Shown here: piece by piece, positions 26,669 to 34,019 of the stretch
Layout of the letters: every line of letters begins with the position of its first letter
How positions within the stretch are numbered: position 1 is the first letter of the stretch
Origin: Escherichia phage SP22
Length of the DNA stretch: 64,000 nt
Sequence record: LC519489.1
Direction: 5' to 3' (one strand)
Notes under the pieces: model-generated
The model's database searches: none
Told to the model about the DNA's origin: nothing
The model's input: the letters and a program-made list of their open reading frames with translations, nothing else
Program-made: the position numbers and the translations under genes

Positions 26669-26815
26669 ATTATCTTTGTAGATAAGTTATTAAGCTTACC
26701 TGTGAGTATGCGACCACAAAGGGTGAAATGGTAAATTCTAGATTTAAACCCAACAATGCACATCGCTACAGACCTTAAGCAAGTCTGGGTAGCTTATCTA
26801 CAAAGATAATTTAAT

Positions 26816-26891
26816 GGAAGTGTAGCAGAATGGTGATGCGGCAGACTTTTAATCTGACAGGCGATGGGTTCGAATCCCTCCACTTCTACCA
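26816..26891 (+). tRNA. tRNA-Lys (anticodon TTT)
   Basis: acceptor ggaagtg/cacttct, anticodon loop cttttaa, T-loop ttcgaat, CCA. Confidence 0.65.
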
Positions 26892-26895
26892 ATAT

Positions 26896-26972
26896 GGTTC
26901 AGTCGCAGATAAGGTAATGCAGGGGTTTCATAAGCCCTATGAATGTGGGTTCGATTCCCATCTGAACCTCCA
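26896..26972 (+). tRNA. tRNA with anticodon CAT (elongator Met or Ile-lysidine type)
   Basis: acceptor ggttcag/ctgaacc, anticodon stem ggggt/gccct loop ttcataa, T-loop ttcgatt, CCA. Confidence 0.6.
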
Positions 26973-26973
26973 A

Positions 26974-27049
26974 GCTGGTATAGTTAAGAAGGTTATAACA
27001 CTCCCCTGATAAGGGAACATCGGTGGTTCGATTCCACCTACCAGTACCA
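26974..27049 (+). tRNA. tRNA-Ile (anticodon GAT)
   Basis: acceptor gctggta/taccagt, anticodon loop ctgataa, T-arm ggtgg-ttcgatt-ccacc, CCA. Confidence 0.65.
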
Positions 27050-27064
27050 ATTTCAATAAAGTTG

Positions 27065-27093
27065 TTGACATTGAGATGTGACTACTTTATAGT
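27065..27093 (+). promoter_or_regulatory. sigma70-like promoter (ttgaca 27065-27070, 17 bp, tatagt 27088-27093)
   Basis: consensus hexamers with 17-bp spacer. Confidence 0.55.
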
Positions 27094-27099
27094 AACTGA

Positions 27100-27387
27100 A
27101 AATGATTCAGCATATGTATAATTCAAACACCAATACATGAGCGTTAGACGTAACACAATGTGGGGAAATTTGTTGTACATATTCTGAATAGTTTTCGTTG
27201 CGTAGCGTCTATTTTGCAAATTTAAAATAAATGCAAACGACAATGTTTTTCTGGCAGTAGCTTGATAGGCTAAACACCAGTGAGGTCTTCCAATCCCTCA
27301 TCAAAGAATTTGGCGTACTCGCCCACGGTATGATTAATAAGGTGGGCATCTTTAAGGGCTTTCTAAGAGAGTCTTTAAAGATAATTA
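27100..27387 (+). ncRNA. candidate non-coding transcript downstream of the promoter and upstream of the atypical tRNA-like gene
   Basis: about 290 nt with no ORF of 60 aa or more in any frame, inside the tRNA cluster. Confidence 0.25.
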
Positions 27388-27469
27388 CGGGGCGTATCTC
27401 AGCGGTCTTCTAAACCGCCGTTAACCGAGTAAGTGGAGTATGCGGGTTCGAGTCCTGCCGCCTCGACCA
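27388..27469 (+). tRNA. atypical tRNA-like gene: canonical T-arm and acceptor with CCA, anticodon-like hairpin gcggt-cTTCTaa-accgc (TCT, Arg-type), no canonical D-arm, 23-nt extra region
   Basis: acceptor cggggcg/cgcctcg, T-arm gcggg-ttcgagt-cctgc; only 7 nt between acceptor and hairpin. Confidence 0.4.
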
Positions 27470-27483
27470 ATTTTGGAGAAATC

Positions 27484-27831
27484 ATGAAAACTTGTATTAG
27501 GTGCAAACTTAGCAAGGATGAAAATGATTTCTACATGAAAGATGGTAAGAGAACTCATTCATACTGTAAAAAGTGTGTTAATGAGCAAACCATAGAAAGA
27601 CAAAGAGCACTTAAACTTTCAGCTATTGAGTACAAAGGTGGGGTTTGTCATGATTGTGGTAAAAGGTATCATCCAGCAGTGTATGACTTCCATCATTTGA
27701 ATCCTTCAGAGAAAGATTTTAACATTGGTCATAGAAAAAGTCTGAAGTTCTCTCAAGAACTAAAAGATGAACTTGACAAATGTGTTTTGCTATGTTCAAA
27801 TTGCCATAGGGTAAGACATGCAAAGTATTAG
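27484..27831 (+). CDS. HNH homing endonuclease (paralog of 29214-29627)
   Basis: CxxC...CHDCG...HHLNP...CSNCHRVRH motifs; start set at ATG after SD ggag (track ORF 27433 overlaps the tRNA-like gene). Confidence 0.7.
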   Translation: MKTCIRCKLSKDENDFYMKDGKRTHSYCKKCVNEQTIERQRALKLSAIEYKGGVCHDCGKRYHPAVYDFHHLNPSEKDFNIGHRKSLKFSQELKDELDKCVLLCSNCHRVRHAKY

Positions 27832-27968
27832 TTAGCAGATTGCTTAGACGACCTTATCGGGTCTCCGTGTAAGGAGGTGGTCTGTATCTCATGTTTTCCA
27901 GAACATGTAAATAATCTGAGAAGGGGCTTTACAGTGTTGCGAAAATACGGTAAGCTTCGAATTACAAT

Positions 27969-28051
27969 ATGGGACGATGTTAAGACTCTAAGGCATGAGC
28001 AACGGCCTCCAAAACCGTTTCAAAGGGGTTCAACTCCTCCGTCCCATGCCA
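27969..28051 (+). tRNA. non-canonical tRNA-like element or pseudo-tRNA
   Basis: perfect acceptor atgggac/gtcccat-g-cca and T-loop ttcaact, but anticodon hairpin aacgg-cctccaaaa-ccgtt has a 9-nt loop and there is an about 8-nt insertion before the D-stem. Confidence 0.3.
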
Positions 28052-28064
28052 AAGTCTTATTAGG

Positions 28065-28154
28065 GGTAGGTAGCGGCTAATGGCAGCCAAACAGTCTTGA
28101 AAACTGTTGCCACTGTAGAGATACGGTGAGGGTTCGACTCCTTTACTTACCGCC
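28065..28154 (+). tRNA. tRNA-Ser (anticodon TGA), class II
   Basis: acceptor ggtaggt/acttacc, anticodon stem acagt/actgt loop cttgaaa, long variable arm, T-loop ttcgact. Confidence 0.65.
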
Positions 28155-28422
28155 TAATAAGATTTATACCGTCCATGCTTGCTCGCATTTTCGGTTTATC
28201 CTCGTGTATTGGTTGTACACACTGATAAAGCACCTAGTAGGTGTCACGGAGAAGAGATAATATCAAGCTCTCCAAAGGTTCTAGTCACCGGATTAAACAA
28301 GACTATGCAAAGACCAAATTAGGTCTTTTTAGAGGGCTTCTAAGGTTATTACAGCTTGTTGTGGAACCTTGTTGCTTAGGTTCTTAGAAGTTCTCTAAAA
28401 AGATTTAATGGGAGATTGACAC

Positions 28423-28875
28423 ATGGCACGTAGCAGTTTGACTAAAGATATTCTTGAACCTTTAGTAAAGGATTCAGTATCATTCAGAGAAGTACTTATT
28501 AAGCTTGGGAGAAAACCAGCAGGTGGTTCTCAGTCACATCTAAAGCGTGTTATAGAGAAGTTTGAAATAGACACTTCTCATTTCCTCGGACAAAAGGCTG
28601 GTAAGGTTAAAACTGTACCAAAAAGAAAGCCTGAAGAAATACTAATTCTGCGTGAATCTGGTGAAAGAGCTAGGTCTTCACAACTAAGAAGAGCTTTAAT
28701 AGCCTCTGGTGTCGAATACAAATGCTCTAAATGTGGTCAGTTACCGTATTGGTTGGGTAACCCTCTAACTCTTGATGTTGACCACATTAACGAGAACTGG
28801 TTAGATGATAGAAAAGAGAATCTTCGGTTCTTGTGTCCAAATTGCCACAGTCAATTCTCAAGACATTTGATTTAA
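28423..28875 (+). CDS. HNH homing endonuclease
   Basis: YKCSKCG...DHINENWLDDRKENLRFLCPNCH motif; SD gggag. Confidence 0.65.
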   Translation: MARSSLTKDILEPLVKDSVSFREVLIKLGRKPAGGSQSHLKRVIEKFEIDTSHFLGQKAGKVKTVPKRKPEEILILRESGERARSSQLRRALIASGVEYKCSKCGQLPYWLGNPLTLDVDHINENWLDDRKENLRFLCPNCHSQFSRHLI

Positions 28876-28876
28876 T

Positions 28877-28953
28877 GCACCTATAGCCCAACTGGTAGAG
28901 GCAGCAGACTTAGAATCTGCTCAGTGTGAGTTCGAATCTCTCTAGGTGTACCA
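28877..28953 (+). tRNA. tRNA with anticodon TAG (Leu-type anticodon) but short variable arm
   Basis: acceptor gcaccta/taggtgt-a-cca, anticodon stem gcaga/tctgc loop cttagaa, T-loop ttcgaat. Confidence 0.55.
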
Positions 28954-28960
28954 AATTAAT

Positions 28961-29036
28961 GCAGGTGTAGCAAAATGGTTATGCGGCTGACTCTTAATCA
29001 GTAAGACGATGGGTTCAATTCCCTCCACCTGTACCA
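28961..29036 (+). tRNA. tRNA-Lys (anticodon CTT), paralog of the TTT tRNA
   Basis: acceptor gcaggtg/cacctgt, anticodon loop ctcttaa, T-loop ttcaatt, CCA. Confidence 0.6.
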
Positions 29037-29042
29037 AACATT

Positions 29043-29118
29043 GGGGATGTAGTTTACATGGTTAAAACATAAGTTTTGCAAACTTAAGTACAGGGTTCAA
29101 TTCCCTGCTTCTCCACCA
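29043..29118 (+). tRNA. tRNA-Ala (anticodon TGC)
   Basis: anticodon stem taagt/actta loop tttgcaa, T-arm caggg-ttcaatt-ccctg, CCA. Confidence 0.6.
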
Positions 29119-29124
29119 ATTAGT

Positions 29125-29199
29125 GCATCCATAGTTTAAACGGGAAAATTACAGTCTTCCAAACTGAGGTTGAGGGTTCGATTCCCTCTGGATGCTCCA
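29125..29199 (+). tRNA. tRNA-Gly (anticodon TCC)
   Basis: acceptor gcatcca/tggatgc, anticodon loop cttccaa, T-arm gaggg-ttcgatt-ccctc, CCA. Confidence 0.65.
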
Positions 29200-29213
29200 A
29201 ATTAAGGTGTGAT

Positions 29214-29627
29214 ATGAAAATATGTAGTACTTGCAGAATACCAAAAGATGAAAGCTTATTCCATAAGAATAAGAACAAGAAAGATGGTCTTCAAAGTCAA
29301 TGCAAAGACTGTGCAAGACTTCGTGATGCAAAGAGTTATCAAGCAAATGATAAAAGGAAAGAGGCTATCAAAAGCACTCGTAACTTCAAGAGGGAGTATA
29401 ATAAAACTCTAGCTAGAAGGTACAAAGCTTTATGCAAATGTCATATATGTGGTGAGAAAGAACCAGCTGCACTGGATTTACACCATACAGACCCTTCCCA
29501 GAAAGATTTGAATCCTGCATCACTTTATTCATACTCCACAAAAAGATTAAAAGATGAAATCAGAAAGTGTATCGTCTTGTGTGCTAACTGTCACAGAAAA
29601 GTACACGCTGGTATCATACAAGTTTAA
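29214..29627 (+). CDS. HNH homing endonuclease (paralog of 27484-27831)
   Basis: CSTCR...CKDC...CHICG...HHTDPS...CANCHRKVH. Confidence 0.7.
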   Translation: MKICSTCRIPKDESLFHKNKNKKDGLQSQCKDCARLRDAKSYQANDKRKEAIKSTRNFKREYNKTLARRYKALCKCHICGEKEPAALDLHHTDPSQKDLNPASLYSYSTKRLKDEIRKCIVLCANCHRKVHAGIIQV

Positions 29628-29628
29628 T

Positions 29629-29705
29629 GCTGCTTTCGTATAATTGGCTATTACACATCCCTTGTAAGGATGGAAATGCAGGTTCGAGTCCTGTGAGCAG
29701 CACCA
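29629..29705 (+). tRNA. tRNA-Thr (anticodon TGT)
   Basis: acceptor gctgctt/gagcagc, anticodon stem catcc/ggatg loop cttgtaa, T-loop ttcgagt, CCA. Confidence 0.7.
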
Positions 29706-29801
29706 ATTTAGAGGTCAAGTGAAAGACCGCTTTGAGTCAACTGAAGACCGTAACAAATCCCACGGAGTTGAGTTAGCGGCACAACTTCAGACCTCTTTCA
29801 T
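29706..29801 (+). ncRNA. structured intergenic element with nested inverted repeats between tRNA-Thr and tRNA-Val
   Basis: gaggtc...gacctc, ctgaag...cttcag and ccgt...acgg inverted repeats; contains the gaagaccgt motif. Confidence 0.3.
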
Positions 29802-29876
29802 ACTCGCTTAGTTTATATGGTAAAACATCACCCTTACAAGATGAAGAAAAAGGTTCAAGTCCTTTAGTGAGTACCA
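29802..29876 (+). tRNA. tRNA-Val (anticodon TAC)
   Basis: acceptor actcgct/agtgagt, D-stem gttt/aaac, anticodon loop cttacaa, T-arm aaagg-ttcaagt-ccttt, CCA. Confidence 0.6.
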
Positions 29877-29877
29877 T

Positions 29878-29955
29878 GTTCCAGTATCCCAATTGGCAGA
29901 GGATGCAAGCTCAAACCTTGTACTAGTGACGGTTCGAATCCGTCTTGGAACACCA
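29878..29955 (+). tRNA. tRNA with anticodon CAA (Leu-type anticodon), short variable arm
   Basis: acceptor gttccag/ttggaac, anticodon stem gcaag/cttgt loop ctcaaac, T-arm gacgg-ttcgaat-ccgtc, CCA. Confidence 0.55.
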
Positions 29956-29960
29956 ATTTT

Positions 29961-30036
29961 GCAGGATTAGTTCAAATGGATAGAGCAACAGTCTACGAAG
30001 CTGTTAATAGGGGTTCGAATCCCTTATCCTGCGCCA
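29961..30036 (+). tRNA. tRNA-Arg (anticodon ACG)
   Basis: perfect acceptor gcaggat/atcctgc, D-stem gttc/gagc, anticodon stem acagt/gctgt loop ctacgaa, T-loop ttcgaat, CCA. Confidence 0.75.
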
Positions 30037-30055
30037 ATTTAAAGAGGCTATTTAG

Positions 30056-30613
30056 ATGAGATATTTGAAGTATGCTTCATGGATTTTCTTAGCTTTGTTA
30101 GAACCATTTGCAGCAATCTTAGCAGTTATCTTAGCACCTTTCGTAGTCCCATTCTACAGTGAGAAGAAAGGACACTTACCTTTCGGCTTCAGATGGATGG
30201 AGACATATGACAACCCAATTGATGGTGATAAAGGGCATGTCGAACGATGGGCTAAGATTAGAAAGATTGGCAAGCTTGGTGTCTATATGCAGAGAGTCGG
30301 TTGGCTCTGGAGAAACAAAGCTTATAACTTCTCTTACCATGTGTTAGGAAGAGATGTAAAAGATGTTACTAAGTGGAAAGGCAATATCAACGTAAGTTCT
30401 AACCCTGAAGATAATCAGACAGGTTATCTCCTAATGTGGAACAGCAATGCTTGGGGATTATTCGCTTTTATCCCATCAATTAAAGTCTTTGGTAAACAAT
30501 TTTACTGGAGAATTTATATTGGGTGGAAGCTAAAAAGTGTTGTCCCAGAAGAAAGAGCATTCTCAAGGGAAAGAGTTATGTTGGCATTCTTTATTCATCC
30601 ACTAAGAAAGTAA
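30056..30613 (+). CDS. hypothetical Trp-rich membrane protein encoded inside the tRNA cluster
   Basis: N-terminal hydrophobic segment WIFLALLEPFAAILAVILAPFVVPF. Confidence 0.45.
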   Translation: MRYLKYASWIFLALLEPFAAILAVILAPFVVPFYSEKKGHLPFGFRWMETYDNPIDGDKGHVERWAKIRKIGKLGVYMQRVGWLWRNKAYNFSYHVLGRDVKDVTKWKGNINVSSNPEDNQTGYLLMWNSNAWGLFAFIPSIKVFGKQFYWRIYIGWKLKSVVPEERAFSRERVMLAFFIHPLRK

Positions 30614-30621
30614 AGATTTAA

Positions 30622-30697
30622 AGGGGATTAGTTTACAAGGTTAAAACCTCGGTCTTTGAAATCGAAGAAGTTGGTTCAATTCCAACATCCCCCGCCA
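30622..30697 (+). tRNA. tRNA-Gln (anticodon TTG)
   Basis: anticodon stem tcggt/atcga loop ctttgaa, D-stem gttt/aaac, T-arm gttgg-ttcaatt-ccaac, CCA; A1:C72 unpaired. Confidence 0.6.
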
Positions 30698-30699
30698 AT

Positions 30700-30778
30700 G
30701 CTCCATTACTCCAATTGGCAGAGAGGCCAGACTTAAAATCTGTGTTATGTATCGGTTCGAATCCGATATGGAGTACCA
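30700..30778 (+). tRNA. tRNA with anticodon TAA (Leu-type anticodon), short variable arm
   Basis: acceptor gctccat/atggagt, anticodon loop cttaaaa, T-arm atcgg-ttcgaat-ccgat, CCA. Confidence 0.55.
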
Positions 30779-30783
30779 AATTT

Positions 30784-30859
30784 AGCGGTATAGCATAACT
30801 GGCAATGCAGCAGTCTCTGAAGCTGTCTTATTAAGGTTCAAATCCTTATGCCGCTGCCA
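30784..30859 (+). tRNA. tRNA with anticodon CTG (Gln-type)
   Basis: acceptor agcggta/tgccgct, D-stem gcat/atgc, anticodon loop ctctgaa, T-arm taagg-ttcaaat-cctta, CCA. Confidence 0.55.
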
Positions 30860-30890
30860 CTTCTAAGGGTTCTTACGAGAGTCCTTAAAT

Positions 30891-30966
30891 GTGGCCTTAT
30901 CATAAATGGTAATGACCCATGCTGTGAACATGGTCTATACGGGTTCAAATCCCGTAGGTCACCCCA
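30891..30966 (+). tRNA. tRNA-His (anticodon GTG)
   Basis: acceptor gtggcct/aggtcac, anticodon stem ccatg/catgg loop ctgtgaa, T-loop ttcaaat, CCA. Confidence 0.7.
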
Positions 30967-30971
30967 ATTTA

Positions 30972-31046
30972 TAGTCCAAGTAGCTTATATGGTTAAAGCG
31001 CGTGTCTGAAAAACATGAGAAGAGGGTTCAAATCCCACTGGACTAC
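30972..31046 (+). tRNA. tRNA-Phe (anticodon GAA); 3' CCA not fully encoded
   Basis: acceptor tagtcca/tggacta, anticodon stem cgtgt/acatg loop ctgaaaa, T-loop ttcaaat. Confidence 0.55.
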
Positions 31047-31064
31047 CAATTTCAAAGGTGCTTA

Positions 31065-31799
31065 ATGAAAGAGATGACAGAACAAGGTAAGGAGATTTTT
31101 AATCTCTTAAAAACCGGTAAAGGGTTTTCTAATCCCCTTATTACTGGTGCAGCAGTTCTCGGTGGAACCGTAGCTGCCTCTACATCACTTGTAAGCTCTA
31201 TTAGCTCTGTAACAGACCCTACAATAAAAGATAAGCTTGTTGCTGCTGGACTTACAACAGTCCTGCTTAACAGCTTTACAACGAGTCTGACAAGCACTAC
31301 ATCAACTACCAAAACACTGACAGATTACGGTCAAAAATCTATTGATGAGTTTTCATCACGTATGCAGGTAGCAAAAGGCTATTCTAATGTTATGGGTGCA
31401 GCAGGAGAGCAGGTTGGTTGTACACCATTTAGTGGTATTATGGGTGTTGCTACAGAGTATGGTCAAAAAGCTATTGACACGATTAACAGTGCACTAGATG
31501 GTGTTAATGATGTATTAAGTGACTTACAAGATGCTATTGACAAAGGTCTTGATACTATTTCTGATTTAGCTAACCAAGCTGTTAGTAAGATTAATGAAGG
31601 TATTTCGAAGATTACAGCTTATGCAGATGAAGTTGTGCAGATGATTGAAGAAGAAGCTGCTCTTATTGCAGAGTACCTTAAAACGAATATCAATGGGTTC
31701 TTAGCAGGTATCTTACCAGACTGGTTTGATGATGCTTGTAAAACTGGTGTAATTGATACTATTGCAACACCAGAAATGAAGAACGCATTACAGAAATAA
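31065..31799 (+). CDS. hypothetical Ser/Thr/Ala-rich protein (start set at internal ATG after the tRNA; track ORF 31002 overlaps tRNA-Phe)
   Basis: ORF track with start adjusted. Confidence 0.45.
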   Translation: MKEMTEQGKEIFNLLKTGKGFSNPLITGAAVLGGTVAASTSLVSSISSVTDPTIKDKLVAAGLTTVLLNSFTTSLTSTTSTTKTLTDYGQKSIDEFSSRMQVAKGYSNVMGAAGEQVGCTPFSGIMGVATEYGQKAIDTINSALDGVNDVLSDLQDAIDKGLDTISDLANQAVSKINEGISKITAYADEVVQMIEEEAALIAEYLKTNINGFLAGILPDWFDDACKTGVIDTIATPEMKNALQK

Positions 31800-31800
31800 T

Positions 31801-31893
31801 GGAAGATTAACCCTAAAAGGTAAGGGAGCAGTTTGCTAAACTGCCAGTAGCTGAGAAATCGGTGTACCAGTTCAAGTCTGGTATCTTCCTCCA
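31801..31893 (+). tRNA. tRNA-Ser (anticodon GCT), class II
   Basis: perfect acceptor ggaagat/atcttcc, anticodon stem gcagt/actgc loop ttgctaa, long variable arm, T-arm accag-ttcaagt-ctggt, CCA. Confidence 0.75.
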
Positions 31894-31897
31894 ATTT

Positions 31898-31973
31898 GAA
31901 TCCGTGACAGAAATGGTTATGTGCCTGTCTGCAAAACAGGTTTATAAGGGTTCGAGTCCCTTCGGATTCTCCA
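31898..31973 (+). tRNA. tRNA-Cys (anticodon GCA)
   Basis: perfect acceptor gaatccg/cggattc, anticodon stem cctgt/acagg loop ctgcaaa, T-arm aaggg-ttcgagt-ccctt, CCA. Confidence 0.75.
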
Positions 31974-32010
31974 AGTTATTTTACTCTCTCTCAATTAAAA
32001 TAATAATAAT

Positions 32011-32070
32011 GCCCTGCTATAAGTATTCTTCCTTTCGCTACCGAAGAGTATTTTTAGACAGGGCTTTTTT
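32011..32070 (+). terminator. long hairpin + tttttt closing the tRNA operon
   Basis: gccctg...cagggc followed by U-run. Confidence 0.6.
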
Positions 32071-32135
32071 ACAGAGTTATACTTTATAAGAAGACTTATA
32101 CAGTATGTCTCTGACGTACATTGTGGTTTCTCCTT

Positions 32136-32159
32136 GACGGTCTCTGTACCGTCTTTTTT
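32136..32159 (+). terminator. rho-independent terminator
   Basis: gacggt-ctctgt-accgtc + tttttt. Confidence 0.65.
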
Positions 32160-32195
32160 AAGGGGAAACATGGTTAACTATTTGGAGAAAACATA

Positions 32196-32396
32196 ATGAG
32201 CGAGACCGTTTATAAAGAACTTTACGAAGCTAACAAGAAGCTAGAATTTATGCAGAACACTATCATGGCAATTGCAGACAGATTATCTGTAGCAACAGGT
32301 ATTGATATTCAAGAAGCGTCTATGGATGCACTTCTTGATGCTGTTGATGCAAAGTTCGAAGTTAAGAAAGAAGAGACTGCTACAGACTCTGAATAA
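32196..32396 (+). CDS. hypothetical small acidic protein preceding the terminase gene
   Basis: ORF with SD ggagaaa. Confidence 0.45.
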   Translation: MSETVYKELYEANKKLEFMQNTIMAIADRLSVATGIDIQEASMDALLDAVDAKFEVKKEETATDSE

Positions 32397-32417
32397 TTCT
32401 ATTTGCGGAGGTGCTTA

Positions 32418-34019
32418 ATGGACTTAAATGCTGTTAAGCAGAAGCGAGTGGAAGATGTTAGGAAAGTCCTAGCTGGAGAGTTGGGGCTTTCTGATGAAGT
32501 AAAAGAAATTATCAAATCATTCGGTAAAGACCCCTCTAAATTCCTTCCAACTCAAATTCTGACTTTATTAAGATACACACCAGACCAAGTTAGACTTATC
32601 TTCAAATTGATGACTGATAAGAACTATGTAGCCCCTCAGCCGGGTTCTCAAGAGGTCTTTTTAAATACTAATGCTGACTTGGTTCTCTATGGTGGTGCTG
32701 CTGGTGCTGGTAAGACTGCTGCATTGTTAATGGACTCTTTAAGGTTTATTGAAGACCCTAACTATAATGCTGTATATTTCCGTCGAAATACAACACAGTT
32801 ACAAGGTGGTTTATGGCCTGCTGCAAAGAAACTATTTGGTAAGTTTGGTGGCGTTCCTCACGAGCAGAAGATGACTATCACATTCCCTTCTGGGGCAACT
32901 ATCAAGTTCACCTACCTAGAACTTGAAAAGCACGCTGAAGGTCATCAGGGTATTGAGTACTCAGCTATCTACTTTGACGAAGGTACGCACTTCTCTGCTT
33001 CACAGATTTCATACCTACAGACTCGTCTGCGTTCTGGTGCTGAAGGTGATTCATACATGAAGATTTCTATGAACCCAGATAGAGACCATTTCATTTACGA
33101 TTGGGTAGAACCATTCTTAGATGAAGAAGGTTACCCAGACCCTGAAAAGTGTGGTCGTATCCGTTGGTATGTTATGAACGATGGTGTGATGGTTTCTGAT
33201 TGGGAGAGAGACAAGATTCTTGAAATGTTTCCTCTTGAGATTCCTCAGACATACACCTTCATCTCTGGTACGATTGATGATAACCCAATTCTTGACTTCT
33301 TAGAACCTAAATATCGTGGTAAGTTGGAAAACAACACACCTGTAAACGTTGCAAGACTTCGTTTCGGTAACTGGAAGGCTCGTGCAGAAGGTTCAAACTA
33401 TTGGCAAAGACAATGGTGTGAAATTGTTGATTCACTCCCAGAAGATGTATTCGATGTCAGAGCATGGGACTTAGCAGCAACTTTACCATCTGAGATTAAC
33501 CCTAATCCAGACTGGACAGCAGGTGTTAAGATGGGTAAATCTAAAAAAGACGGTTGCTATTATATCATTGATGTAGTAAGATTTAGAGATAGACCCTCTG
33601 GAGTCGAAACACAAATTAATTTGACTGCTGAAAGTGACGGTAAGCGAACTGGTATTTTTATCCCTCAAGACCCAGGCGCTGCTGGTAAATCCTACGCAAC
33701 ATCCCTCATCAGGAAACTTGCCGAGAAAGGTTATCGAGCAAGAGCTAAACCAACAAATAAAGATAAAGTTACCCGATTTGCGGGGTTTTCTGCTGCTTCT
33801 GAAGCTGGACTTGTAAAAGTCTTGAGAGGTAGTTGGAATGAAGCTTACTTCCAAGAACTTGAAGGCTTTTGTGGTGATGGTAAAACTAAAGATGACCAAG
33901 TGGATGCTACCAGTGATGCTTTCAACAGTCTTAACGAAGTTAAATTATTCAAGCCACCATCAATGGGCGCTCACACAGACTTAGTGAGAGGAAACCCATA
34001 TGAGGGGCTTAGACGTTGA
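32418..34019 (+). CDS. terL: terminase large subunit
   Basis: Walker A-like YGGAAGAGKT and Walker B-like IYFDEG in N-terminal ATPase region, acidic C-terminal nuclease-like region; start set at ATG after SD ggagg; followed by portal candidate. Confidence 0.75.
   Translation: MDLNAVKQKRVEDVRKVLAGELGLSDEVKEIIKSFGKDPSKFLPTQILTLLRYTPDQVRLIFKLMTDKNYVAPQPGSQEVFLNTNADLVLYGGAAGAGKTAALLMDSLRFIEDPNYNAVYFRRNTTQLQGGLWPAAKKLFGKFGGVPHEQKMTITFPSGATIKFTYLELEKHAEGHQGIEYSAIYFDEGTHFSASQISYLQTRLRSGAEGDSYMKISMNPDRDHFIYDWVEPFLDEEGYPDPEKCGRIRWYVMNDGVMVSDWERDKILEMFPLEIPQTYTFISGTIDDNPILDFLEPKYRGKLENNTPVNVARLRFGNWKARAEGSNYWQRQWCEIVDSLPEDVFDVRAWDLAATLPSEINPNPDWTAGVKMGKSKKDGCYYIIDVVRFRDRPSGVETQINLTAESDGKRTGIFIPQDPGAAGKSYATSLIRKLAEKGYRARAKPTNKDKVTRFAGFSAASEAGLVKVLRGSWNEAYFQELEGFCGDGKTKDDQVDATSDAFNSLNEVKLFKPPSMGAHTDLVRGNPYEGLRR

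Follow-up and report, generated by a model that had tools for sequence, protein, structure and literature searches.

The 64,000-nucleotide (nt) sequence of Escherichia phage SP22 analysed here (LC519489.1; hereafter the window) derives from a Felixounavirus-like phage, positions 26980–27480 being 98% identical to Escherichia phage mio (BLASTN), and contains a cluster of 25 tRNA genes at 25.6–32 kb. Within this cluster a sigma-70-type promoter is followed by an interval (positions 27100–27387) that precedes a tRNA-like gene (27388–27469) and an HNH open reading frame (ORF; ATG at 27485, extending to 27831). The interval very probably specifies a functional RNA derived from transfer-messenger RNA (tmRNA) that has no tRNA-like domain, and it includes an arm complementary to the message region of host tmRNA. 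From 5′ to 3′ the RNA would comprise an optional module A, the antisense arm, a spacer and resume codon, a tag frame, a P5-like helix and two pseudoknots (PK2 and PK3). The features of the locus are as follows.

27065–27093, plus strand: sigma-70-type promoter (TTGACA, 17 bp, TATAGT; 11/12 match), with the transcription start expected near 27099–27101.

27097–27188, plus strand: module A, a structured 5′ domain of 92 nt between the promoter and the antisense arm, with hairpins AUGUAU/AUACAU and GCGUUA-GACG-UAACAC.

27189–27218, plus strand: antisense arm UAGUUUUCGUUGCGUAGCGUCUAUUUUGCA, complementary to E. coli tmRNA nt ~77–107 (spacer AAAAAAUAGUC, resume codon and codons 2–6).

27219–27232, plus strand: A/U-rich spacer AAUUUAAAAUAAAU, which forms the resume-codon context and agrees here with the consensus of the Rfam tmRNA and tmRNA_permuted models.

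27233–27268, plus strand: tag frame GCA AAC GAC AAU GUU UUU CUG GCA GUA GCU UGA UAG, reading ANDNVFLAVA, with no start codon and two stops.

27251–27280, plus strand: P5-like helix with a covarying outer stem CUGG/CCAG, an inner stem UAGCU/GGCUA and the stop codons in its loop.

27281–27313, plus strand: PK2, in which helix H6 joins 27281–27285 to 27296–27300 and the loop sequence CCAA (27290–27293) pairs with UUGG (27310–27313); seen by covariation.

27314–27347, plus strand: PK3, in which CGUACU (27314–27319) pairs with GGUAUG (27327–27332) in the loop of helix H7; seen by covariation.

27348–27387, plus strand: 16-bp leader hairpin (27348–27382) and AAUUA, abutting the 5′ end of the tRNA-like gene; present in the minimum free energy (MFE) and centroid structures.

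A preliminary description of this DNA had noted a near-consensus promoter followed by about 290 nt without an ORF of 60 aa or more, upstream of a tRNA-like gene and an HNH gene, and had suggested a leader or small RNA co-transcribed with both. The promoter is the top sigma-70 match within 24500–33000 (8.5 kb), a region in which promoter-like sites as a class are not enriched (20 observed versus 20.0 expected from shuffled sequence). There is no ORF of at least 60 aa in 27094–27387, the longest ones (53 aa at 27082–27243 and 46 aa at 27209–27349) both lying on the minus strand, and the two downstream genes are placed as described. An identical promoter is annotated in the ASO1A record, and equivalent promoters stand directly 5′ of the motif UAGUUUUCG in ASO1A, Roscha1, IMG/VR locus L016 and Pantoea locus L139. 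The 288-nt RNA of the interval has a predicted MFE of −83.7 kcal/mol, against −59.7±4.7 for dinucleotide shuffles (z = −5.1).

Joint transcription of the interval with the tRNA-like gene is very probable, since there is no terminator-like site from the promoter to the gene at 27388 and since the leader hairpin directly adjoins the 5′ end of that gene. Hairpins of similar type, ending AAAGAUAAUU(U)A, stand before other tRNAs in a complementarity search, and in relatives with a different tRNA in this slot the alignments stop at 27382; RNase P cleavage at the junction 27387/27388 presumably leaves the RNA with its 3′ end there. The HNH gene is absent from the close relatives ASO1A and JH2 and represents a clean insertion made later (27474–27827); it is therefore not a functional partner of the RNA, so that the suggested co-transcription survives for the tRNA-like gene and the HNH gene drops out as a partner. 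Nor is the element tied to a tRNA cluster or an HNH gene, for it also occurs in phages with neither beside it, for example in a lambdoid late leader and in Schitoviridae phage Pollock, where it has its own terminator. What stands of the earlier interpretation is a promoter-driven, non-protein-coding, small structured RNA; the notion of a generic leader gives way to a core made up of a tmRNA-derived message domain and an antisense arm.

The core has the elements by which a tmRNA message domain is usually recognized: GCA behind an A-rich spacer, a short frame with a hydrophobic and Ala-containing end, and a stop. The resume context AAAAUAAAU is followed by GCA, and AUAAAU-GCA is invariant across all homologues. 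As in bacterial one-piece tmRNA (SsrA; RF00023), the A/U-rich spacer has UA at −5/−4 before the GCA resume codon, the short frame runs from AND to a final Ala and stops in the P5 loop, and H-type pseudoknots lie downstream. The frame has exactly 10 codons and a stop in 45 of the 47 distinct variants (128 copies). Its tags follow the pattern AN[DE]...[L/R/K]x[A/V]A, always with an AN[D/E] start and an [A/V]A end (e.g. ANEEMYLAVA, ANDDVVLMAA, ANDEQFLAVA and ANDSEMRVAA), although the conservation of the tag start is partly built in, GCA AAY GA having been fixed by the retrieval pattern. The last tag codon is GCN with all four third bases in use, and Leu codons are CUG or UUG.

Rfam models detect this relationship faintly. 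In a permissive search the tmRNA model aligns 27197–27386 with model positions 56–295 at 16 bits (gathering threshold 47 bits) and tmRNA_permuted scores 22.2 bits, also below threshold, the alignments being centred on AUAAAUGCAAACGA. Five other loci give no tmRNA matches, and alpha_tmRNA reaches 17.8 bits in flopper. In Citrobacter phage Moogle, ARAGORN reads a 'resume consensus' and the tag ANDNVFLAVA at the element.

The preliminary description had held that a conserved small peptide ORF would contradict a leader or small RNA. A conserved 10-codon frame is present, but it has no start codon and takes the form of a tmRNA tag, and it is not a free-peptide gene. Coding for a small protein, or for a cis-read C-terminal degron, is an exceedingly unlikely role for the interval. 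The minus-strand ORFs of 53 and 46 aa and the conserved plus-strand frame could be read in this way, but the minus-strand frames vary between homologues in both frame and length, and no start is conserved among them, on which ground a protein-coding reading was rejected; the plus-strand frame lacks a start codon and an upstream ORF, and the transcription start is only 40–60 nt upstream in several phages.

Helix 5 with the stop codons, and pseudoknots 3′ of the frame, are likewise found, and structure prediction with covariation from related phages, which had been named as a check on the RNA, bears them out. Covariation was evaluated on two alignments of 20 and 17 homologues, each less than 90% identical to one another. 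Standard pairs occupy 91.8% and 93.3% of cells (79% and 77% in shuffles), and changes on both sides occur at 19 and 18 of 24 pairs, a level reached in 0 of 500 shuffles; when the partner columns are slid, pairing falls to 29–46% of cells. In the P5-like helix all five pairs of the outer stem are changed on both sides (e.g. CUGGC/…CCAG to AAAGC/GCUUU or CUGAU/AUCAG), the inner stem being seen by eye only. H6 and the PK2 loop helix are 100% paired, with both-side changes in three H6 pairs and all four loop pairs. PK3 is also 100% paired and shows compensatory changes (CG, GC and UA at one pair), and H7 (27321–27326 with 27342–27347), whose loop carries the conserved GAUUAAUAA, is 92.6% paired with 4/4 pairs changed on both sides. 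A pseudoknot 1-like fold 5′ of the resume codon can be drawn by eye (UUGC/GCAA and AAUAG/CUAUU) from the same nucleotides that form the antisense arm, and in other lineages as CUUUGCGG/CCACAAAG; it has no consistent covariation in the homologue alignment.

A covariance model (R1) was built from 17 homologues with no Felixounavirus sequence among them. Searched against the 64-kb window it gives one match (27223–27352; 113.3 bits, E = 6e-24), and it recovers all homologues tested, among them Roscha1, missed in the pattern search. R1 also matches genuine E. coli tmRNA weakly, in the sense orientation, at nt 80–192 (22.4 bits, E = 0.003), a homology shared with the one-piece form. The core is concluded to be homologous to the part of tmRNA that spans spacer, message, helix 5 and pseudoknot 2.

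Related elements are widespread. BLASTN of 27100–27387 matches 648 phage records, and besides Felixounavirus the carriers are Erwinia Kolesnikvirus, Kuttervirus (Ackermannviridae), Klebsiella siphoviruses, lambdoid HK633, Schitoviridae (Pollock), Chaseviridae (flopper and Bp7), one G7C-like phage and one T5-like phage. Of 5426 complete E. coli genomes, 154 hold a related version, which is unannotated there, and an exact pattern derived from the element retrieved more than 120 IMG/VR contigs. Applied to one genome per bacterial species, the same pattern finds true copies only in Enterobacterales (Rosenbergiella, Pantoea and Pseudocitrobacter); matches in Advenella and Flavobacterium are due to chance, having no tag frame and no R1 hit. 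In the two cases inspected for this purpose (HK633 and an O26 strain) the element lies between antiterminator Q/PR′ and the holin gene. All eight inspected loci have it in an unannotated gap, and the features under the match in the listed phage records are occasional short hypothetical proteins or none, with no tRNA or non-coding RNA feature.

It is very unlikely that captured tmRNA DNA has merely persisted here as a non-functional relic, or that the element serves only as a processing-assisting spacer or leader in the tRNA operon. Its location at the 5′ end of a tRNA precursor, the recurrence of its closing hairpin type before other tRNAs, and the variability of module A and of the neighbouring genes would fit such an origin. 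Against it, identity across unrelated phage families is 71–87%, non-tRNA contexts included, five helices show many compensatory changes, the length and stop of the frame are maintained, and a model built from distant relatives finds the single copy in the window at 113 bits.

The enclosing tRNA-like domain that normally defines tmRNA (acceptor, G3:U70, T-arm and CCA) is absent. Neither the window nor 131 homologous loci (1.1 Mb) yield a tmRNA with ARAGORN, except for a 'permuted tmRNA' in Moogle that is an artefact, its 5′ domain belonging to tRNA-Lys. When T-arms with a 7-bp acceptor around the element were sought by script within 900–1200 nt, ordinary tRNAs alone came up. The ASO1A promoter leads straight into the core, 27097–27188 being missing, and in Roscha1, L016 and the Pantoea prophage a consensus promoter lies a few bases 5′ of the core; because the promoter abuts the core in these four, the RNA cannot begin with an acceptor strand. 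It also has no D-loop analogue and no closing P2 helix. Two-piece tmRNA requires an acceptor piece and a coding piece paired through acceptor and P2 helices, and here too the 5′ acceptor strand is wanting. The RNA is accordingly classed as a tmRNA-derived variant and not as a member of the family, since both the tRNA-like domain and the P2 helix are missing.

Two nearby tRNA-like sequences were considered as the other half of a split phage tmRNA of which the element would be the coding piece.

27388–27469: atypical tRNA-like gene, missed by ARAGORN, with no D-arm and with G3:U70, A73 and an encoded CCA.

26591–26642: circularly permuted tRNA-like sequence, with a T-arm (26591–26607), ACUCGGC and A, a 3-nt spacer, GUCGAGU and a D-arm.

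In favour of the first are its G3:U70, A73 and CCA, and in a local search it matches the ends of the Rfam tmRNA model (22.1 bits, E = 4e-7). However, it has an anticodon loop CUUCUAA (anticodon UCU) on a covarying stem, and T5-like, Mydovirus and other phages carry the gene but not the message domain; the position is G3-C70 in locus L011, and the same slot in JH2 holds a canonical tRNA-Arg(UCU). On these grounds it was rejected as the missing domain. No base-pairing between it and the message RNA was found, and cleavage by RNase P would part the two. Copies in T5-like, Mydovirus, Justusliebigvirus and jumbo phages are 83–89% identical to it. The gene would combine an alanine-identity acceptor with an arginine anticodon.

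The permuted sequence was joined to the tag by ARAGORN in the Moogle call. Its acceptor helix is fully compensated in Moogle, with CCA encoded (ACCCUUC-G-CCA-AACA-GAAGGGU), but it lacks G3:U70 (C3-G70 in the window, A3-U70 in Moogle) and lies 600 nt upstream of the element, behind three tRNAs and the promoter. A 12-nt complementarity between 26666–26682 and 27372–27388 was considered as a P2-like link and rejected, the two sites being paralogous leader hairpins; the match is uninformative because a 12-mer is expected by chance in 7 kb of AT-rich sequence. A closing helix formed by the flanking repeats AGUGCUCUU and AAGAGCAUU of lambdoid-type loci was also rejected, by eye on the Carvaje sequence; the compensatory changes favour self-closure of each neighbouring module. 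Most other lineages have no enclosing pair of T-arm and acceptor, and those nearby are ordinary tRNAs. A split phage tmRNA is therefore improbable.

The most conserved 5′ motif of the family, (U)AGUUUUCGU(C), lies in a 30-nt arm that is an interrupted antisense copy of host tmRNA, with the seed UAGUUUUCGU and an invariant GUUUUC. Complementarity was computed for E. coli K-12 tmRNA. A full-length RNA duplex prediction gave a meaningless end-to-end duplex, and k-mer, local-alignment and domain-restricted duplex tests were used. In the k-mer test, 41 of 46 representatives have a perfect complement of 8–11 nt to tmRNA 96–107 (tag codons Asp-Glu-Asn-Tyr). A collinear block GCGACU, in the window GCGUCUAUUUU, complements tmRNA 80–91 (the resume codon and the UAGUC determinants), and further collinear blocks are UUUGCGG(C) against 74–81 and (G/C)UUUUUA against 68–74. 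Local alignment of the arm with the reverse complement of tmRNA scores 27–44 in 17 of 19 representatives (background ~16±2.5; 0 of 300 shuffles reach this), and nearly all alignments fall within nt 57–107, most of them within 68–106; the window arm scores 31 (shuffles 15.7±2.7). Scores against sense tmRNA are at background.

Predicted duplexes with host nt 60–118 have energies of −23 to −40 kcal/mol, compared with −10 to −21 for the phage RNA's own resume region and −11 to −20 for shuffles. For the window arm, the duplex with host nt 76–107 is predicted at −27.3 kcal/mol, that with the RNA's own sense region at −15.3, and those of shuffles at −12.6±3.4. In ASO1A, Roscha1, L016 and L139 the motif is 0–10 nt from the expected transcription start. 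The arm thus has, by prediction, the conserved single-stranded seed complementary to a defined target that characterizes base-pairing small RNAs (sRNAs). Judged by its sequence, the RNA looks like an antisense copy of tmRNA 68–107 joined to a diverged sense copy from ~nt 75 onward, of which only the antisense part appears to have kept its complementarity to the host.

Whether the RNA acts through pairing with host tmRNA is evenly balanced in our estimate, and the reading as a whole, that this is a tmRNA-derived RNA which works by such pairing, is given a probability of roughly 0.5. Several points weigh against it. The window's own match is 27 nt at 81% identity, with a BLAST E of ~1 against 64 kb, and because it is insignificant by itself the antisense argument relies on where the arm lies and on the pattern across the family. 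The target used was E. coli K-12 tmRNA, and Salmonella phages are numerous among the carriers; the Salmonella tag, which we take to be ANDETYALAA with codon 5 ACC in place of AAC, would introduce one mismatch in the seed. Module A places the arm of the window ~90 nt from the 5′ end and not at it, and the pseudoknot 1-like fold drawn by eye can compete with pairing in trans. The invariant GC of the last tag codon could stem from the P5 helix and not from translation. Transcription, processing, pairing and tag translation are all deduced from sequence, and we know of no earlier case in which tmRNA receives its message domain in trans.

An alternative without pairing or translation is that the RNA mimics the body of tmRNA and acts as a decoy that titrates tmRNA-binding proteins (SmpB, S1, RNase R) or a host defence factor able to sense or cleave tmRNA. 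Its resume context, P5 helix and pseudoknots have been kept tmRNA-like, and there is a precedent for partial tmRNAs as inhibitors in the tmRNA of phage DS6A, which consists of the tRNA-like domain only and is thought to interfere with host trans-translation by titrating SmpB (PMC4131195, PMC11915505). The phage RNA described here is the reciprocal of that molecule, the message and pseudoknots being kept and the tRNA-like domain gone. Besides that of DS6A, further tmRNAs without coding sequence are known. A decoy leaves unexplained both the conserved antisense arm, which is complementary to the host and not to the RNA itself, and the strict 10-codon frame ending in Ala. SmpB, moreover, binds mainly the tRNA-like domain of tmRNA, the very part that is absent here. 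This explanation is regarded as unlikely, though as less so than a split tmRNA.

Under the reading that combines tmRNA ancestry with pairing, an RNA of ~200–290 nt would be made from the 27065–27093 promoter as the 5′ part of a tRNA precursor and would be freed by an RNase P cut at 27387/27388, with the terminal hairpin (27348–27382) forming and protecting its 3′ end. The arm would pair with the single-stranded spacer, the resume codon and the first six codons of host tmRNA, masking the host tag template, and pairing would at least hinder loading of that template. The phage strand would exit the duplex beside host pseudoknot 1 and continue with its 14–22-nt A/U-rich spacer and its own GCA. Because the phage spacer and GCA would adjoin host pseudoknot 1, the complex would have the topology of a two-piece tmRNA with a phage template.

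Host tmRNA-SmpB could still rescue stalled ribosomes, and two outcomes can be envisaged. The host degradation tag may simply not be added (a block), or translation may resume on the phage frame, so that truncated proteins would receive …LAVA or …LMAA instead of the ClpXP/SspB-optimised ANDENYALAA. The second, in which a hybrid two-piece tmRNA has the tRNA-like domain and SmpB of the host and the template of the phage, is a tentative proposal and in itself doubtful. It accounts at one stroke for the tag-like frame with its conserved resume context, for the antisense arm and for the lack of a tRNA-like domain, and each rival, whether a simple block, a decoy for proteins, a split tmRNA of the phage or a relic, is rated lower than an explanation of the tag-swap type.

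The element differs from one-piece tmRNA in several respects beyond the missing tRNA-like domain. Two downstream pseudoknots are present and not three, the tags end in LAVA, LMAA or similar and not in ALAA, an arm is antisense to tmRNA itself, and the scores are below the Rfam gathering values. Two-piece (permuted) tmRNAs, known from Alphaproteobacteria, some Betaproteobacteria, Cyanobacteria and marine phages, share with it a message domain on an RNA molecule separate from the tRNA-like 3′ half and attached to that half by base-pairing (PMC9004378), putatively so in the phage case, and the phage tag start ANDN… resembles the tmRNA_permuted consensus. The known coding pieces, however, open with the acceptor strand of the 5′ side and are joined by acceptor and P2 helices to the acceptor piece of the same gene, whereas the phage RNA has no acceptor strand and its only convincing complementarity is to the message region of host tmRNA. 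Phage-encoded tmRNAs are otherwise known from mycobacteriophages, Bacillus phage G and marine two-piece forms, and an ARAGORN survey found tmRNA in 402 of 18,146 phage genomes (PMC4131195, PMC11915505, PMC9004378). Such surveys would miss the present element because they rely on ARAGORN or Rfam hits and reject truncated forms. No description of a message-only or tmRNA-antisense relative of tmRNA was found in the full-text literature, in which the tag peptides were also searched as strings.

Phage-borne RNAs that neutralise a core-genome RNA by pairing have reportedly been described by Tree et al. in 2014, namely the prophage anti-sRNAs AgvB and AsxR of pathogenic E. coli, often located in the lambdoid late region; these are said to be short sponges that mimic the mRNA targets of Hfq-dependent sRNAs, whereas here the target is tmRNA and a full message domain is present. 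The setting of the SP22 element within a tRNA transcription unit has its own parallel. In phage T4 the species 1 and 2 RNAs (rnaC and rnaD) are small stable RNAs co-transcribed and processed with the phage tRNAs; to our knowledge they do not resemble tmRNA.

Trans-translation is the main bacterial pathway of ribosome rescue and quality control and an antibiotic target, and several phages depend on it. If a message domain without a tRNA domain, paired with host tmRNA, is confirmed, it would represent a new form of phage-host conflict over stalled ribosomes and truncated proteins. With a true tag swap, a virus would for the first time be seen to reprogram trans-translation, and tmRNA to be given a message domain in trans. 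Confirmation would also provide a natural tool for re-targeting the tag, would account for long 'non-coding gaps' in therapeutic phages (Felixounavirus, Kuttervirus and Klebsiella siphoviruses) and in the lambdoid prophages that pathogenic E. coli carry, and would imply that tmRNA search tools requiring a tRNA-like domain overlook a whole class of tmRNA relatives.

Module A is precisely missing from ASO1A and many other Felixounaviruses and is common only to a subset of Felixounaviruses and the Chaseviridae (flopper and Bp7). In flopper it lies 5′ of the same element, and there both hairpins show compensatory changes and the GACG loop is conserved. A search of 5426 E. coli genomes gave no match to module A, and the possibility that the module is an antisense or homologue of a host RNA was rejected on that basis.

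In several loci the element lies within arrays of hairpin-closed RNA modules (HK633, L006 2300–2830; Carvaje, L001 2340–2810; L019; L133 3126–4197). The array modules of these lambdoid- or siphovirus-type loci are bounded by inverted repeats, CAGGUAAGAGCAUU … AGUGCUCUUUCCG or GUUGUGGUG … CACCACAAC, and some contain T-arm-like hairpins; none matches Rfam. Kuttervirus SenASZ3 (L002 1796–4171) has a 2.4-kb unannotated stretch of such hairpin-closed structures.

Elsewhere in the tRNA cluster of the window, a second atypical tRNA-like gene is present at 27969–28051, with an acceptor AUGGGAC/GUCCCAU followed by G and CCA, a T-arm and a 9-nt anticodon loop CCUCCAAAA (anticodon CCA, Trp). It has no ARAGORN call and a weak Rfam match, and is the only candidate for tRNA-Trp in the cluster. 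A second HNH ORF (28423–28875) lies 3′ of a long hairpin (28318–28409), at a position where JH2 has a tRNA; the two HNH genes form a pattern typical of homing-endonuclease turnover in a tRNA cluster. Long hairpins at 26668–26811, 27348–27382 and 28318–28409, and also at 26398–26440, have related arms (…UCUUUAAAG…/…CUUUAAAGAUAAUU(U)A) and end just 5′ of tRNAs, and may be processing or leader structures. The first of these corresponds to a 22-bp inverted repeat around 100 nt (26668–26689 and 26790–26811) 3′ of the permuted tRNA-like sequence. A further motif, CAGAAGACC(N5-6)CAGCAA, is located 3′ of tRNAs at 25795–25822, 25962–25989, 26437–26464 and 26527–26554, and is partly complementary to GGUCUGG 5′ of tRNAs (GGTCTGG at 25870, 26513 and 26657).

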